From NCBI GenBank assembly GCA_965219345.1, contig OZ244732.1, positions 320,001-384,000 of the forward strand: a stretch of 64,000 nt of DNA, in the 5' to 3' direction. Numbering within the stretch: the stretch's first letter is position 1; every line of letters starts with the position of its first letter. The notes under the pieces were generated by a model. That model saw only the letters and a program-made list of their open reading frames with translations. It had not been told where the DNA came from and ran no database searches. The position numbers and the translations under genes were made by a program. Below are positions 8,432 through 26,155 of the stretch, one piece after another. This DNA comes from Nitrosopumilus sp. Lineage in GTDB: Archaea > Thermoproteota > Nitrososphaeria > Nitrososphaerales > Nitrosopumilaceae.

Positions 8432-9919
8432 TTAGATTGCAGGAACTACTATTCCTCTATCTATCATCTTAAGTGCAGTATCTGCTTTTAGGCACATAGC
8501 TACACCGTTTGATGCTTTCATTACAAGACTAAATCCTTCACGACATTCAATGTCTGCAGCATCAATACCTGCATTCATTTGGTGACGTGGTGAAATCCAA
8601 GCTAGTTGGAGATCTTTTGCCTTTTCAATGAATTCTGCCCTAAGTTCTTGTTTTTCCTCGTCTGATAGTTCTGATGATCTCTCACGAAGTTCCATCTTGA
8701 AAGCCTTCATCTCTGCTACTCTATCTTTGATTTCAGATTTGCGCTCATCAGATATTTCGATCTTCATTAAAGCCATATGGTTTTTGAACTTTATTTTGAG
8801 GTCTGACTTTTGTTTATCAGTCCAATCACCGTGCTTTTCTTGGTATTTCATTCTGATTTCATCTGTTCTGTCATCTGAGATATCATGCTTTTCCATGATC
8901 ATTGCCTTTAGACGTGGAGACATGTCAGACATCTTCATCTTGTCATGAACTTTGTCTTTCATGGTATCATGATGTTTCATCTTGTATTCCTCTAGCTCTT
9001 CAGGTGTCATATTACACCATTCTGAGAGTCTATCAAGTTTTGCAGAGTCTGTAATTTCTGCTGCTCTATCAGATTCAGCTAGTCCACATAGTCTATCATA
9101 ATCCATATGTTTTTTGTTTGTCATAACATCACGCATTTTATCTTTCATGTAATCTCTGTATTCGTCTCTGTGTTCAGCGATAAAGTCTGCTTTGTCAGTT
9201 TCATTTAGAGTACAAAATCTGTCCATCTTTGCTGCTTTGTCTGCAGTTTTATCATGTTCAGCTATGTATTTTCTTTTATCTTCATCAGACATTTCACAGT
9301 ATCTATCCAGTTTGTGTCTCATGTCTTTGTTAATATTCATTATGTATTCGTGTTCATGTTCATCGATGTATGCATCACGTTCATCTTCAGACATTTCACA
9401 GTATGCATTCATTCTATCAACATGTTCTTCAGTTTTTTCATGTTCAGCAATTAGCTCTGCTTTTTCCTCGTCAGTCATCTCACAGTATCTATTTAGTTTG
9501 TCTTCAAGAACATCATCATAATCTCTTTCTTTAGGGAAATGTTCTCGCATAAATTCGTCAATTGCGCCGTCTCTTTCATCTTCAGATAATTCACAATGGT
9601 GTACAATTCTCTCTCTGAATTGTTCAAGTCTTGGATGATCTGCAAAAAATTGGCGTTTCTCCTCGTCAGTCATATTACAGAAAGCTTCTAGTCTGTCATC
9701 AAGTCCATATTCATCGTTATCGTCTTCTCGTTCATCGTCTTCTGTAGTTTCATCAGTGGCATCATCCATAGTATCTTCAGAGTCTTCTGCTGTGTTTACA
9801 GTAACTTCTACTGAATCAGATACACCAACATCGTCTGTTTGTGCATATGCAGAACCTGCAGATACACCTAATACCATGATTAGAGATAAAACAATACTTA
9901 GAAGTTCTCTGCTTCGCAT
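8432..9919 (-). CDS. Secreted Cys/His/Met-rich helical-repeat protein with thaumarchaeal C-terminal Cys motif
   Basis: Signal peptide; repeated (L/M)xxYCEMSxEEK units; C-term CREGFSLVMKASNGVAMCLKADTALKMIDRG. Confidence 0.85.
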   Translation of the reverse strand: MRSRELLSIVLSLIMVLGVSAGSAYAQTDDVGVSDSVEVTVNTAEDSEDTMDDATDETTEDDEREDDNDEYGLDDRLEAFCNMTDEEKRQFFADHPRLEQFRERIVHHCELSEDERDGAIDEFMREHFPKERDYDDVLEDKLNRYCEMTDEEKAELIAEHEKTEEHVDRMNAYCEMSEDERDAYIDEHEHEYIMNINKDMRHKLDRYCEMSDEDKRKYIAEHDKTADKAAKMDRFCTLNETDKADFIAEHRDEYRDYMKDKMRDVMTNKKHMDYDRLCGLAESDRAAEITDSAKLDRLSEWCNMTPEELEEYKMKHHDTMKDKVHDKMKMSDMSPRLKAMIMEKHDISDDRTDEIRMKYQEKHGDWTDKQKSDLKIKFKNHMALMKIEISDERKSEIKDRVAEMKAFKMELRERSSELSDEEKQELRAEFIEKAKDLQLAWISPRHQMNAGIDAADIECREGFSLVMKASNGVAMCLKADTALKMIDRGIVVPAI

Positions 9920-10100
9920 TACAAAATTTCAATTCCTTTACATATAAAGAATATTGAAGAAGGTTCTGTAACATCTTCGGGTGTTATCGCTTAAATATGA
10001 ATTTTCTTCAAATTGGGATTGATGCCTAGGCCCTCACATAGGTTCTGTGTAGTCTTCGAGTGGTAAACATGTATTTTCTCCAAATTGAGGCTTTGCCAAG

Positions 10101-10247
10101 TTATCGGGGTGTAAAACATTTTTTAACATTCCACAATTTTGTTTTACATTTAGGGCATATTATTGGAAGCGGAGCATCCCTTGTTCTGGATGTCCATTCC
10201 CAATAACATCTTTCACATTTGTAACCCTGTATGTTGATTATCCCCAT
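10101..10247 (-). CDS. Small zinc-ribbon protein, divergent from transposase
   Basis: MGIINIQGYKCERCYWEW...CPKCKTKLWN; probable start 10247 within the longer ORF. Confidence 0.7.
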   Translation of the reverse strand: MGIINIQGYKCERCYWEWTSRTRDAPLPIICPKCKTKLWNVKKCFTPR

Positions 10248-10281
10248 TACTGATATGGTGATATTTATCCAAATAAAAGAC

Positions 10282-10328
10282 TTTACCTTAAAGGTAATGC
10301 ATATGTTATGGATTGCCTTTAAGGTAAA
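10282..10328. promoter_or_regulatory. Double palindromic operator (17-bp inverted repeat) in divergent promoter
   Basis: TTTACCTTAAAGGTAAT (10282-10298) and ATTGCCTTTAAGGTAAA (10312-10328), 1 mismatch; each arm is itself palindromic. Confidence 0.6.
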
Positions 10329-10329
10329 T

Positions 10330-10412
10330 ATGAAATATGCAATGATGAAAAATAAAATCAGAGGCATGGGAGTGCCAATGATGGACTTGTTACGAACTGA
10401 GCATACTTTCAT
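10330..10412 (+). ncRNA. C/D-box guide sRNA, predicted target 16S rRNA U1498 (E. coli numbering)
   Basis: C box ATGATGA 10342-48; D' CAGA 10359-62; GGCAT-GGGA-GTGCC hairpin; C' ATGATGG 10378-84; 12-nt guide ACTTGTTACGAA; D box CTGA 10397-400; terminal stem ATGAAATATGC/GCATACTTTCAT. Confidence 0.8.
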
Positions 10413-10442
10413 CTCCCACTTTATAATTTTTGAGGTATTACC

Positions 10443-11623
10443 ATGAACGCAAGACACAGAGAGCCAAACAGTAAGCGGTAGGTGAAGCATCATTCTTTCT
10501 GATTAACTCTAAAGCAACCTTGACGTGCTTGCAGTCGGATTTTCTTTCCTGGTGATCCGAACACTCACAGACCAGACCGTTATCACTTCTTGAAATTATG
10601 TATGATTTTGTAGGATCGGTTTGTGATTTTATTTTGATTTTGTTGTTTCCAATGAACTTTGCAAAGTCTGATAATTCCATAACCTGTTTGGCTCTCTGTG
10701 TTCCTGCGTTCATAGATACTTGTTTACGTGGCAACACTTGGTGGTCAAAAGCAGGCATTCAGAATCATGGAAAGATCACTGATCAGGGTCTGCAAGTCCT
10801 GTGATTCAGGCAGTATTGTCAAAGCTGGACTAGAGAAAGATAAGAACAGGACTTTGCAGAGATTCAAGTGTCAGGACTGCAAGAAAGGATTTGCCACTAA
10901 TTTTGGATTTGAAAAGGTGAGGTCAAAAGATGTTATCGTAACTAGAGCCTTACAAATGTATTATCAAGGATTGAGTGTCAGAGATATTGCAGATAACCTT
11001 GAACAAGAAGGAATTGAAATATCCCACATGACAATATACAGATGGATTGACAAATATTCCAAACTAACTTCAAAATATCTCAATGGTATAGTTCCAAGAG
11101 TAGGCAACTGGTTCAGGGCAGACGAGGTATGGGTAAAGATTGCAGGAAAGCAGAATTACCTGTTTGCCTCAATGGATGATGATACCGAGTATTGGCTGGC
11201 TTCTGATATTGCAGAAACTAAATTCCAGCATAATGCAGACAACTTATTACAGTTAACCAAAATACAAGCAGGAAAGAATCCTAGAAGTTTCATTACTGAT
11301 GGATTACAAGCCTACAAGAAATCAAGTAAGTCTTTGGTACAAAAACTAACCACGTCAGACATATTTACATTCAAAGAGACATGAACAATAACAAGATGGA
11401 AAGATTGAACGGTGAAATCAGGGACAGGGAAAAAGTCTTCAGAGGCTTGAAAAGAATGGACACAGGCATTTTAGATGGCATGAGAGTTTACTATAATTTT
11501 ACAAAGAAACACGGAGCCTTGAAAGGCAAGACTCCTGCACAGGCCTCAATGATCGAAGTGGATGGTTTGAACAAGTGGAAGACCATAATTCAAAACGCCT
11601 CGTTAAGCAAGGATTCTCAATAG
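10443..11623 (+). pseudogene. IS6-family DDE transposase with N-terminal SWIM and IS1-like zinc ribbon; SWIM part inverted, frameshift near 11330
   Basis: CKSCDS..CQDCKK; HTH; WFRADEVWVKIAG; FITDGL; NNNKMERLNGEIRDREK in a second frame; SWIM (CECSDH..CKH) encoded on minus strand ~10488-10713. Confidence 0.85.
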
Positions 11624-11711
11624 ACACAAAAATCAATTTGAATAAAATTCATATTTCATGTCCATATCCCCATAACGTTACAGAACCCTTGATCGATATG
11701 GTTATTTACCA

Positions 11712-11722
11712 CCCCCCCCCCC
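11712..11722 (+). repeat. Poly-C (11) tract just upstream of the cargo gene start
   Basis: TTATTTACCA-C11-GTAGATAGTAAGTG. Confidence 0.8.
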
Positions 11723-11733
11723 GTAGATAGTAA

Positions 11734-13086
11734 GTGACACTAAAAGAGAGAGACAGCACTATTGCGGCAGTCCTGATGGCTGTAGCGATAGCAGCAACAA
11801 TGACTGCAGGCTACTATGCGTATGGCCAGTCAGTCAATGATGCTGACGTGGAGATTCTTCCAACACTGAGATACGATGTCGAATATGGTACGATTGCCCA
11901 TGATCTGTCCCTGGTAACAGAACGAGTTAACTTTATTCCTATACTTCATAATGCTATTGGTTACAATGTCACTGGAAATCCCTGGATTGCCGTATTTCCC
12001 GACCCCCTGACCACTGAAGAGGGCGGCAGCCTTGTGGCATCCGGAGATCCCATAAAACCGTACGATTACAGCAATGACGCTAATCCCGAACTTGCCATAA
12101 CCTGTAATACGAATGACTTTGGCCACGACCCCACAATGCTTGCCGAATTTGACTACATCCCCGGTGCCACATATACGGGCATCGATACGTTTGACATTGT
12201 CATAAAAGAGTTCACCTATACCGGTAATGCCGGGAATGCGACCTGTACTACTACCGGGGCAACCAAGACCATACCCGTGGAGATTACGGTAGGTGAAAAG
12301 CCATCCGTAACGTTCAGGGATGACTTTACAAAGTTCTCCAACAGTTCCGGCGTAGTCGTGCTTGACCGTGATGATGACCTGATTGGTTTGCAACCTCCCG
12401 GTGATGGCTTCTTCGACTTCGCGGTTCCATTTCCCTCCTTTGATCTCCCTGTAAGTAATGCAATAGTCGGACTTGACCTTCCTGAGACGACAGATGACGG
12501 ATCAGCCATAACTCCCGTAACCTTGGAAAATGGTACCAAATATTATGTCATCAGAGGCGTGTTTAGTAATGACTCTTTTTCATACAATGCGACTGCCAGT
12601 CTGCCTTACGGTACCGTTGCTGCAAACGGCACTATCGTAGGGTCCCTAAACGAGATTGCATCAAAAACAATTGACGTCACGCTGGATGCCTCTGGCGCTA
12701 CTGATGTTCCTATATGCTCAGCTGACATAATATCAGGTGATCTGGACTTTGGCAGCCTGGCATATGGCGATATTTCGGATACAAAGAGAATTGTATCCAA
12801 GAATACTGGCACTACTTATGCTGTTATGTTAATATCTGGCACTGACTGGCTGGACAGTCATGATACCCCAATCATGGATGTGGGGCAGACAAGGTACACT
12901 GATGACCTGGACTTTGCATACGCGAATATACTATCAATATCTGAAACAGACACAGTGTTTACCAGTTTTGTCATTCCTGACAATGAAAGAGTCCTCTGGC
13001 TGCAAGTTCAAATTGGTGGCGACATCAGTCCAGACTTTACAGGTCAGATTACACAGACTGTGACTATATCTGTGTTCTGTCCCTAG
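11734..13086 (+). CDS. Secreted beta-rich surface protein with Ig/cadherin-like domain
   Basis: N-terminal hydrophobic segment; FDYIPGATYTGIDTFDIVI (Ig/Big-like); Thr/Asp/Gly-rich; codon usage unlike host genes. Confidence 0.75.
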   Translation: MTLKERDSTIAAVLMAVAIAATMTAGYYAYGQSVNDADVEILPTLRYDVEYGTIAHDLSLVTERVNFIPILHNAIGYNVTGNPWIAVFPDPLTTEEGGSLVASGDPIKPYDYSNDANPELAITCNTNDFGHDPTMLAEFDYIPGATYTGIDTFDIVIKEFTYTGNAGNATCTTTGATKTIPVEITVGEKPSVTFRDDFTKFSNSSGVVVLDRDDDLIGLQPPGDGFFDFAVPFPSFDLPVSNAIVGLDLPETTDDGSAITPVTLENGTKYYVIRGVFSNDSFSYNATASLPYGTVAANGTIVGSLNEIASKTIDVTLDASGATDVPICSADIISGDLDFGSLAYGDISDTKRIVSKNTGTTYAVMLISGTDWLDSHDTPIMDVGQTRYTDDLDFAYANILSISETDTVFTSFVIPDNERVLWLQVQIGGDISPDFTGQITQTVTISVFCP

Positions 13087-25772: not shown

Positions 25773-26155
25773 TGATCAGTCTTGCCACCTTTGATTTTAG
25801 AAATTGTTTCTACAATTTGATCTACTATGTGTTGTGCATCACCAGCATCCAAAATAGCTGCAGCCGCTGAAGTAATCTCAATTCCTAATGAACTACCTAA
25901 TTCTTGCTTAGTTGGAACAAATACAAATGCTGCACCCTGTTCCTCACATAGAATTGGAAGATGAGCTACTACCTCAGGTGGTTCAACGTCTTCGGCTATA
26001 ACAATCAGTTTGCTTGAACCACGTTCGATTGCTTTGGTGGCTTCATTGGTTCCTTTTTTGACTTTACCGCTGGTAGCTGCTACTCTAAGTGCCTCTAAAA
26101 TTGGACTTACAAGGTCCTCTGGCGTCTCAAATTTAACGTAATAAGGTTTTCCCAT
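25769..26155 (-). CDS. rpl7ae: 50S ribosomal protein L7Ae
   Basis: [29 protein letters not shown]. Confidence 0.98.

Follow-up and report, generated by a model that had tools for sequence, protein, structure and literature searches.

Can an insertion sequence carry its own guide RNA for modifying the ribosomes of its host? The question is raised by positions 10330-10412 of a 64,000-nt stretch of Nitrosopumilus sp. DNA (contig OZ244732.1, positions 320,001 to 384,000, forward strand; the whole stretch is called the window here, and positions are counted from its first letter). The segment lies within an IS6-family insertion sequence (IS), ahead of the transposase gene, and a first-pass annotation made from the letters alone had taken it for an archaeal C/D small RNA (sRNA) aimed at U1498 of 16S rRNA. 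Box C/D guide RNAs are normally treated as housekeeping chromosomal genes. We consider it likely that the segment is a genuine archaeal box C/D guide RNA gene and that it forms built-in cargo of this Nitrosopumilus IS6-family element; as far as sequence evidence reaches, the first-pass interpretation is supported.

Architecture of the candidate guide RNA and its conservation

Each of the boxes, the hairpin, the guide and the stem that the first-pass annotation had listed is present where it had been placed (Table 1). The segment has the C and D boxes, the terminal stem with a kink-turn (k-turn) and the internal C'/D' boxes by which C/D sRNAs are recognized. At both the C/D and the C'/D' motifs, the k-turn geometry consists of a closing stem, a 3-nt A-A-U bulge and then the GA dinucleotide of C or C'. 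The hairpin between D' and C' can also be read, as it was originally, as a 5-bp stem in which a U.G pair closes a GGGA tetraloop. The distance from C' to D is exactly 12 nt.

Relatives were found by BLAST and with a covariance model, R1, built from four copies. Among the 20 best of them, the C (RUGAUGA) and D (CUGA) boxes are kept in the great majority, and the C'-to-D spacing is again 12 nt in most. Changes on both sides are seen in 14 of the 15 stem pairs, comprising all 11 pairs of the terminal stem and three of the four in the hairpin. Overall, 88.9% of the cells are paired, as against 68.3% in shuffles and 32-50% when the partners are slid, in an alignment that was fitted to the covariance model and therefore somewhat favours structure. 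The first-pass annotation had named conserved boxes and stem covariation in related IS copies as a check on its reading, and both are found.

A further helix, between the hairpin loop and the 3' trailer, was assessed in a MAFFT alignment of 19 copies (A7). Over its five core pairs 87.4% of the cells are paired, compared with 30-55% when the partner is slid by 1-3 columns. Three of the five core pairs vary on both sides, with the combinations GGCAG/CUGCC, GGGAC/GUCCC, GGGAA/UUCCC and GGGGA/UCCCC.

On the D' side, the arrangement of about 12 nt between C and D' together with a second guide was not found: the spacer is 10 nt long and has no rRNA match of at least 9 nt, in line with the earlier remark that it lacks an obvious target. 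We regard the D' side as probably non-guiding. The spacer region 10349-10360 has a perfect 12-nt complement at 10624-10635, inside an inverted SWIM-like segment further downstream; this match is probably due to chance, since ten pairs of the kind, this one included, occur within 2.1 kb of A-rich sequence.

Could AT-rich DNA have produced these boxes by chance? Folded as a single sequence, the segment has an energy that does not stand out (z = -1.2), and an Rfam scan of 9000-13000 (E up to 10) returned only sub-threshold matches to eukaryotic snoRNA models (SNORD27, 22.7 bits, E = 1.8). A strict C/D scan of the whole 1.9-Mb genome on both strands (3.8 Mb), however, yields only four candidates, three of which stand directly upstream of IS6 transposase copies, and there are about 40 relatives with covariation. 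Chance is already contradicted by these data, and its probability is in our view close to nil.

Genes for the host machinery are present in the same genome, namely those for L7Ae (PF01248), Nop5 (PF01798) and fibrillarin (PF01269), all scoring above cut-offs. The best L7Ae gene (PF01248, 89.9 bits) is located in the window, at 25829-26101 on the minus strand, about 15 kb from the sRNA.

Guide classes and their predicted ribosomal targets

Within the D guide, CTTGTTACGA forms 10 contiguous Watson-Crick pairs with positions 1426-1435 of the host's own 16S rRNA, which read TCGTAACAAG (the 16S gene is at C1:1381785-1383255 of the window's genome, G000). The base opposite the fifth nucleotide upstream of box D is U1429 of this rRNA, which corresponds to E. 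coli U1498 by alignment to rrsH. The complementarity to the U1498 region proposed in the first-pass annotation thus holds for the host's own 16S rRNA, both in its perfect 10-nt extent and in its register. A second 16S site, at 1408-1418, offers 11 bp (10 Watson-Crick pairs and one G.U) and would bring U1412, E. coli 1481, to the target position. In helix 44 of this rRNA the universal motif UCGUAACAAGG (1425-1436) is preceded, at a distance of 17 nt, by a near copy of itself, UUCGUGACAAGG (1408-1419); hence the guide has two possible 16S sites.

The D guides of the family fall into four classes. Class 1, (A)CTTGTTACGA(A), is that of the window copy and points to 16S U1498. Class 2, GTTTRATAGGCT, matches positions 2650-2659 of the host's own 23S rRNA, with U2653 as the target (E. 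coli 2560, in the 3' strand of the A-loop helix 92). Class 3, GCCTGTTAT, matches GAUAACAGGCU of 23S rRNA, the target being A2451 in three distinct copies and A2450 in two (E. coli numbering; A2544 and A2543 of the host's own 23S rRNA). For class 4, ATCTGGCGTTAC, there are imperfect matches only, the best of them near E. coli 23S 2172. Three of the four classes (1-3) thereby form 10 or more contiguous Watson-Crick pairs with 16S or 23S rRNA of the host, as do only 1.08% of genomic 12-mers.

The target register is constant in classes 1 and 2. Among the six distinct copies of class 1, none of the nine guide-core columns varies, versus 9 of 11 and 9 of 12 columns in the stem arms; variants of class 2 differ by A-to-G changes, with the pairing kept as G.U. 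Co-variation of guide and target between hosts is not visible, the 23S target being identical in the four genomes G007, G151, G112 and G156. For 14 of 20 copies the nearest scaffold neighbour belongs to a different guide class, and the window scaffold itself is 94% identical to that of a class 2 copy in G007. Guide class is thus out of step with scaffold relatedness, which implies that guides have been exchanged repeatedly. The first-pass annotation had asked whether the guide is conserved or varies between copies, and the answer has two parts: the core is invariant within class 1, and guides are swapped between classes, of which classes 1-3 are matched to rRNA.

In the parts of two reviews available to us, archaeal methylation hotspots are predicted around the peptidyl-transferase centre, in helices 90-93 (PMC7994747, PMC4644070), and the class 2 and 3 targets lie in or beside these helices. 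Predictions for helix 44, which holds the U1498 target of the window copy, are sparse in the same portion of the latter review; the G1494 equivalent is one of them (PMC4644070).

That a conserved non-coding RNA with a variable stretch precedes a transposase gene would also be in keeping with a different role, in which the 12-mer guides the transposase to DNA in the manner of the IS110 bridge RNA or the TnpB omega RNA. Guide RNAs in such a position are known from other IS families. A link between IS110 and Nop5 has been discussed as well (PMC11213020, in the section available). On the other hand, the longest stretch shared by guide and flank is 3-6 nt, which is within the chance distribution, and two copies with the same guide reside at unrelated sites. 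Furthermore, the guides match rRNA, yet no examined copy lies in rRNA genes, and IS6 DDE transposases are not known to have an RNA partner. A DNA-guiding role consequently has very little probability in our estimate.

The IS6-family carrier, its small-RNA slot and the transposase

Approximately 40 relatives of the sRNA occur in 19 of 151 Nitrosopumilus genomes, the window's own included, and several genomes have multiple copies, up to five each. Of the 32 model matches examined, 16 are followed on their own strand by an IS6 transposase that begins 27-66 nt further on, and the rearranged window copy makes a 17th; among the remaining matches, one is at a contig end and several are weak. Two copies in one genome, G036 (L011 and L012), are 99.96% identical over 2560 bp, exactly from GGTTCTGTAACG... 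at the left inverted repeat to ...CGTTACAGAACC at the right one, and have unrelated flanks. Since this identity runs from repeat to repeat and includes the sRNA, the sRNA lies within the mobile unit. The intact G036 transposase matches Pfam DDE_Tnp_IS240 with E = 1.3e-13. In G000, ends resembling the left inverted repeat are found upstream of the small-RNA slot in sister copies, and the genome contains many diverged IS6 copies. The proposal that the sRNA is IS-borne therefore stands, both through its recurrence upstream of IS6 transposases in many genomes and through its position inside the mobile unit of G036.

The first-pass annotation had allowed for a core chromosomal sRNA captured only once. 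A pattern search for the class 1 guide in the 151 genomes of the genus gave 15 matches, versus about 21 in a reversed control, and those not linked to an IS are in coding sequence without a C box. For the class 3 guide there were 37 matches against 4 in the control; of 12 loci inspected, one is an already known IS-linked copy and 11 are coding-like and without C/D architecture. This alternative is ruled against, as no other sRNA with a class 1 or class 3 guide was found in the 151 genomes. An exact-pattern scan for the hairpin plus C' box gave 12 stretches in metagenome contigs, all of them unrelated chance matches, and none in viral contigs.

The features of the window copy are collected in Table 1. 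Its terminal inverted repeats start with GGTTCTGT, and both are intact. The first-pass annotation had placed the sRNA inside the IS6 element, between a palindrome and the transposase ATG at 10443. The inverted repeats and the palindrome are real; the ATG is the ancestral start codon, but inversion of the segment 10443-10713 has left it with a frame of no more than 12 codons. In other copies the SWIM-like domain encoded there forms the N-terminus of a single 375-aa transposase that begins at the ATG equivalent to 10443, and all other copies examined have the segment in the opposite orientation to that of the window. The SWIM-like reading frame of the window is on the minus strand (10441-10713) and includes a CxCx9CxH motif; it has no Pfam match. 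The transposase is also split by a frameshift near 11330-11342, close to an A5 run, into open reading frames (ORFs) at 10728-11384 and 11381-11623, with tblastn matches in two frames. Inversion and frameshift together leave the window transposase disabled, with the sRNA and both inverted repeats intact. No matching direct repeats that would represent an 8-bp target-site duplication flank the window copy, L011 or L012; IS6 copies are often without such duplications after cointegrate resolution or recombination.

The inversion could be a one-off recombination or an invertible switch. As for contigs of public DNA runs, that of one run spans 10420-11384 in the window orientation, and those of another break at the repeat. 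The contigs of three of the four public runs are one base shorter than the window at 11544.

Table 1. Positions of the sRNA, its parts and the surrounding features of the IS6-family element in the window
Feature	Position	Strand	Basis or remark
Left terminal inverted repeat, starts GGTTCTGTAAC	9962-10028	+	about 80% complementary to 11621-11687
Second, direct copy of left-end repeat, GGTTCTGTGTAG...	10041-10065	+	77% identical to 9961-9986
Small zinc-ribbon ORF, 48 aa from MGIINIQ..., divergent from sRNA	10101-10247	-	weak Pfam Zn_ribbon_8 match, E = 5.6e-4, below cut-off
Palindrome, 22-nt arms, 91% complementary	10282-10328	.	flanks putative sRNA promoter
TATA-like box ATATGTTAT	10301-10309	.	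about 29 nt before terminal stem; putative promoter
Box C/D sRNA (candidate)	10330-10412	+	sequence read; covariance model R1, 112.8 bits; covariation; guide complementarity
5' stem arm ATGAAATATGC	10330-10340	+	sequence read
C box ATGATGA	10342-10348	+	sequence read
C-to-D' spacer AAAATAAAAT, 10 nt, A-rich	10349-10358	+	sequence read
D' box CAGA (second position degenerate)	10359-10362	+	sequence read
Hairpin GGCA/UGCC, loop UGGGAG	10363-10376 (arms 10363-10366/10373-10376)	+	sequence read
C' box ATGATGG	10378-10384	+	sequence read
D guide ACTTGTTACGAA, 12 nt	10385-10396	+	sequence read
D box CTGA	10397-10400	+	sequence read
3' stem arm GCATACTTTCAT	10401-10412	+	terminal stem of 11 bp, one bulged C
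3' trailer CUCCCA, pairs with hairpin loop UGGGAG (10367-10372)	10413-10418	+	pseudoknot-type contact
T-rich tract TTTATAATTTTT	10420-10431	+	conserved in nearly all copies; also resembles a TATA box
Shine-Dalgarno-like GAGGTA	10432-10437	+	6 nt before ATG 10443; complementary to 16S 3' end CACCUCC
Inverted SWIM-like segment	10443-10713	.	bounded by 29-nt inverted repeats 10443-10471 and 10684-10713
IS6-family DDE transposase	10767-11623	+	Pfam DDE_Tnp_IS240, E = 1.6e-9
Right terminal inverted repeat, ends ...AACGTTACAGAACC	11621-11687	-	inverted-repeat pairs with 9962-10028

A copy in this state might harbour nothing but a silent relic, an unexpressed passenger of a dead IS whose decay is yet to come. 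The inverted segment and the frameshift agree with this, as do a promoter-like box, ATATGTTAT, that is less TATA-like than those of the relatives, and a second copy in the same genome that is cut off in mid-sRNA. The sRNA of the window, however, has kept every box and the two stems, together with the pairing of loop and trailer and a guide that is perfect over 10 nt, its scaffold is as close to the G007 copy as noted above, and the inverted repeats around it are whole. A relic is thus a quite improbable explanation.

What occupies the same position in other full-length IS6 copies of this genome varies: a compact C/D sRNA in three, a relative of class 4 in one, tRNA-Leu(CAG) in two and nothing in two. 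The compact sRNAs, at C1:212581(-), C1:1035555(+) and C1:1717119(+) of G000, are canonical 50-nt C/D sRNAs situated about 50-130 nt upstream of the transposase ATG, with 12-nt spacers, an 8-bp stem (ATGAGGGC/GCCCTCAT) and six different guides. The two tRNA-Leu(CAG) genes in the slot (C1:1220105-1220191 and C1:1730533-1730619) are followed by a T-rich tract, a Shine-Dalgarno (SD) motif and the ATG; a third tRNA-Leu(CAG) gene is outside the slot, at C1:491458-491544.

Other tRNA-related sequences were seen near IS6 copies. Both tRNA-Arg(CCT) genes of the genome are just downstream of IS6 transposase copies (C1:1235416-1235499, in locus L002, and C1:1718374-1718456), the first of them between a transposase remnant and the right inverted repeat, and several odd tRNA-like calls occur beside IS fragments. 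In another Nitrosopumilus genome (L065, about 2330-2470), two pieces resembling tRNA T-arms flank a minimal C/D-like unit upstream of an IS6 transposase; the unit, TGATGA ... CTGA closed by GATGTC/GACATC, is reminiscent of an sRNA in a tRNA intron or of a split tRNA. L002 also holds the second R1-type sRNA copy of G000 (C1:1234893-1234934), which breaks off after the 5' arm of the hairpin and runs directly into the 3' third of a transposase gene; upstream of this remnant are a zinc-ribbon ORF and a DNA methyltransferase gene, an arrangement as in G007. In 7 of the 32 sRNA matches, the opposite strand carries, 66-102 nt ahead of the sRNA, a 47-aa ORF homologous to the zinc-ribbon ORF of the window. 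Right after the IS end of the window copy there is an 11-C homopolymer (about 11712-11722), followed by the start of a 450-aa secreted-looking protein (window 11688-11900). The first ~200 nt of the gene for this protein recur at least 10 times in the genome with 75-88% identity, often beside IS fragments, and may represent a variable surface-protein family.

The layout between the sRNA and the transposase bears on how both might be expressed. In the relatives, the sRNA is preceded at about 30 nt by TATATA or TTATAT, with short repeats on either side that vary from subgroup to subgroup. The T-rich tract TTTATAATTTTT behind the trailer is a probable archaeal termination or attenuation signal for the sRNA. 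Of 30 distinct transposase 5' regions compared, three were artefact rows and were dropped; among the rest, an SD-like motif (GAGGT or GGAGG) is present in 20 of 20 with a small RNA gene versus 1 of 7 without. Measured in three copies without a small RNA, the TATA-like box begins 29-30 nt ahead of the ATG, a distance to be expected of leaderless mRNAs, whereas in the cargo-bearing copies that were measured only 22-27 nt separate the T-rich box from the ATG (22 nt in the window copy). Transcription starting from the T-rich box would miss the SD motif, so the simplest reading is that the sRNA and the transposase share the sRNA promoter. Together, this suggests that the two are co-transcribed. The layout of SD motif and T-tract lends some support to the suggestion in the first-pass annotation that control of the transposase leader depends on L7Ae. 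A translational switch in which the trailer pairs with the SD motif was rejected, because the SD motif is invariant and changes in the trailer follow those in the loop.

Such an arrangement could mean that the element serves mainly in cis, as a leader of the transposase mRNA that is double k-turned, pseudoknotted and bound by L7Ae, which would set how much transcription or translation reaches the transposase. The complementarity to rRNA would then be secondary, for example a tether to ribosomes or to pre-rRNA, or something inherited from an sRNA that had been captured; a leader function is also compatible with a guide RNA. It accounts for the position 27-30 nt upstream of the transposase ATG with a conserved T-tract and SD motif in between, for the SD contrast of 20/20 to 1/7, and for a covarying loop-trailer helix that ends immediately before the T-tract. 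A D' spacer too short and too low in complexity to guide is equally at home in a leader, and the tRNA genes that fill the slot in two sister copies suggest that it serves transcription or processing and not a particular target. Regulation of mRNAs by L7Ae through 5' k-turns has been reported in Sulfolobus (PMC5539422, in the portion available). Nevertheless, a pure leader needs no variable segment matched to rRNA, and three guide classes form at least 10 contiguous Watson-Crick pairs with rRNA where about 1% of genomic 12-mers do so. Moreover, the guide core is conserved like box D within a class, its changes keep the pairing through G.U, its length is exactly 12 nt and its register is constant in classes 1 and 2. 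We therefore consider it unlikely that the element is mainly a leader.

The reading of 10330-10412 as an IS-borne guide RNA has points against it as well, beyond the fold energy and the Rfam scan already given. The C-to-D' spacer has 10 nt where 12 are canonical, and D' is CAGA or CAAA. The loop-trailer pairing is foreign to canonical C/D sRNAs and may compete with the architecture of the ribonucleoprotein (RNP). The IS copy in the window is decaying, and its promoter-like box is the less TATA-like one described above. In the genomes searched, the family is restricted to one genus; an order-level draw of 151 included 145 genomes from other genera, which gave a single weak match. For class 4 and for the compact sister sRNAs, no match to rRNA or tRNA rises above background; of 400 random 12-mers, 106 satisfy the criterion applied. 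Two registers, A2450 and A2451, occur among the class 3 copies. According to the part of a report available to us, the 2'-OH of A2451 is the most critical rRNA group for peptide-bond formation (PMC2919715); class 3 guides in the A2451 register are puzzling, since methylation of this group should cripple the reaction, and such methylation sits badly with a simple host-beneficial role.

Proposed action, known parallels and significance

For an IS-borne guide RNA, the following course of events is conceivable. The sRNA would be transcribed from its own TATA-type promoter about 30 nt upstream and, as its sequence and covariation show, would adopt two k-turns, C/D at the terminus and C'/D' internally, with a stem closing each of them. 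L7Ae, Nop5 and fibrillarin of the host may then bind it. The D guide would pair with 16S 1495-1504 (E. coli numbering), and fibrillarin would 2'-O-methylate U1498 at the top of helix 44; the 11-bp site at E. coli 1481 is a possible second one, and the A-rich 10-nt D' spacer would probably not act as a guide. The layout suggests that the transcription unit of the transposase begins, next to the promoter, with the sRNA, in the order terminal stem, loop-pairing trailer, T-tract, SD motif and ATG. Most transcripts might end at the T-tract as sRNA, and read-through would give transposase mRNA; the T-tract could act as a leaky terminator and the assembly of the C/D RNP could define the sRNA. With the scaffold kept and the D guide exchanged across the family, the IS would spread programmable guides for rRNA modification. 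The fuller version of this idea, that a plug-in small-RNA slot of an autonomous IS spreads guides that re-aim host methylation at catalytic nucleotides of the ribosome (U1498, the A2451 ribose and the A-loop helix), is put forward tentatively; it is possible, although we hold it to be doubtful. The biological roles offered in the first-pass annotation, such as protection against antibiotics or ribotoxins and addiction, are speculation.

The window sRNA shares with the archaeal box C/D sRNAs of Sulfolobus, Pyrococcus and Pyrobaculum the C/D k-turn, the C'/D' boxes, a 12-nt D guide and complementarity to rRNA under the fifth-base target rule; for classes 2 and 3 of its family, location of the targets in the hotspot regions of 23S domain V is a further shared trait. 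It differs from them in its length of about 83 nt instead of about 50-60 nt, in the stem-loop between D' and C' that pairs with the 3' trailer, in the 10-nt A-rich D' spacer, in its location inside an autonomous IS where it is probably co-transcribed with a transposase, and in having no Rfam family at threshold. Mobile rRNA methyltransferase genes for resistance, erm, cfr and armA/rmt, alter methylation at the decoding site or the peptidyl-transferase centre. They too are cases of mobile DNA that changes rRNA methylation at these places, although they encode protein enzymes of fixed specificity; here the specificity would reside in a 12-nt RNA and the catalyst would be the host's, and a role in resistance is speculation.

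The closest archaeal precedent is provided by the MITE-like C/D elements of Pyrobaculum calidifontis (Lui et al. 2018, PMC6009581). As depicted in the part of that paper available to us, they are mobile, with inverted repeats and with guides that differ between copies; unlike the present family, they are short and non-autonomous, have degenerate C'/D' boxes and orphan guides or guides to non-conserved tRNA sites, and occur in one species. Here, by contrast, a full IS6 element with a transposase carries conserved guide classes directed at universally conserved rRNA sites, in 19 of 151 genomes. The v-snoRNA1 of Epstein-Barr virus, as characterized in the accessible part of the preprint, is likewise a C/D guide of a mobile element, methylating host rRNA near the A site with host machinery (bioRxiv 10.64898/2026.05.13.724956); it is experimentally proven and belongs to a eukaryotic virus, whereas the guide proposed here belongs to an archaeal transposon and is deduced from sequence. 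In Salmonella, a small RNA derived from the 5' untranslated region of IS200 tnpA similarly comes from the 5' part of a transposase transcript and has host targets (PMC5435999, in the portion available), but it is a bacterial regulator of the antisense type, not a k-turn RNP that guides methylation, and has no exchangeable guide. The first-pass annotation knew of no described IS-encoded C/D guide, and none was found in the literature searched, including the available parts of archaeal and thaumarchaeal IS surveys, exclusive of supplementary tables.

Taken together, a whole family of C/D guide RNAs appears to travel in an autonomous insertion sequence, apparently sharing a transcription unit with the transposase, and their exchangeable guides point at the most conserved functional nucleotides of the ribosome. 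Should these RNAs be active, mobile DNA has an RNA-programmed means of altering rRNA modification, for which the nearest described parallels are the protein rRNA methyltransferases on resistance elements and a single viral snoRNA. On the tentative fuller reading given above, acquiring an IS copy would change how, or whether, the ribosomes of the host work; possible outcomes are protection from drugs or toxins at the decoding site or peptidyl-transferase centre, a selfish damping or re-tuning of translation, or an addiction-like dependence, and guide swapping between copies would let the element change its target. The family would offer a natural system for studying the origin and spread of methylation guides, the tying of transposase expression to a stable RNP, and the tolerance, protection or toxicity that comes with methylation of U1498 or A2451. 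Finally, since IS-borne sRNAs make up three of the four strict C/D candidates in this genome, transposons may be a main source of guide RNAs in these abundant marine archaea.

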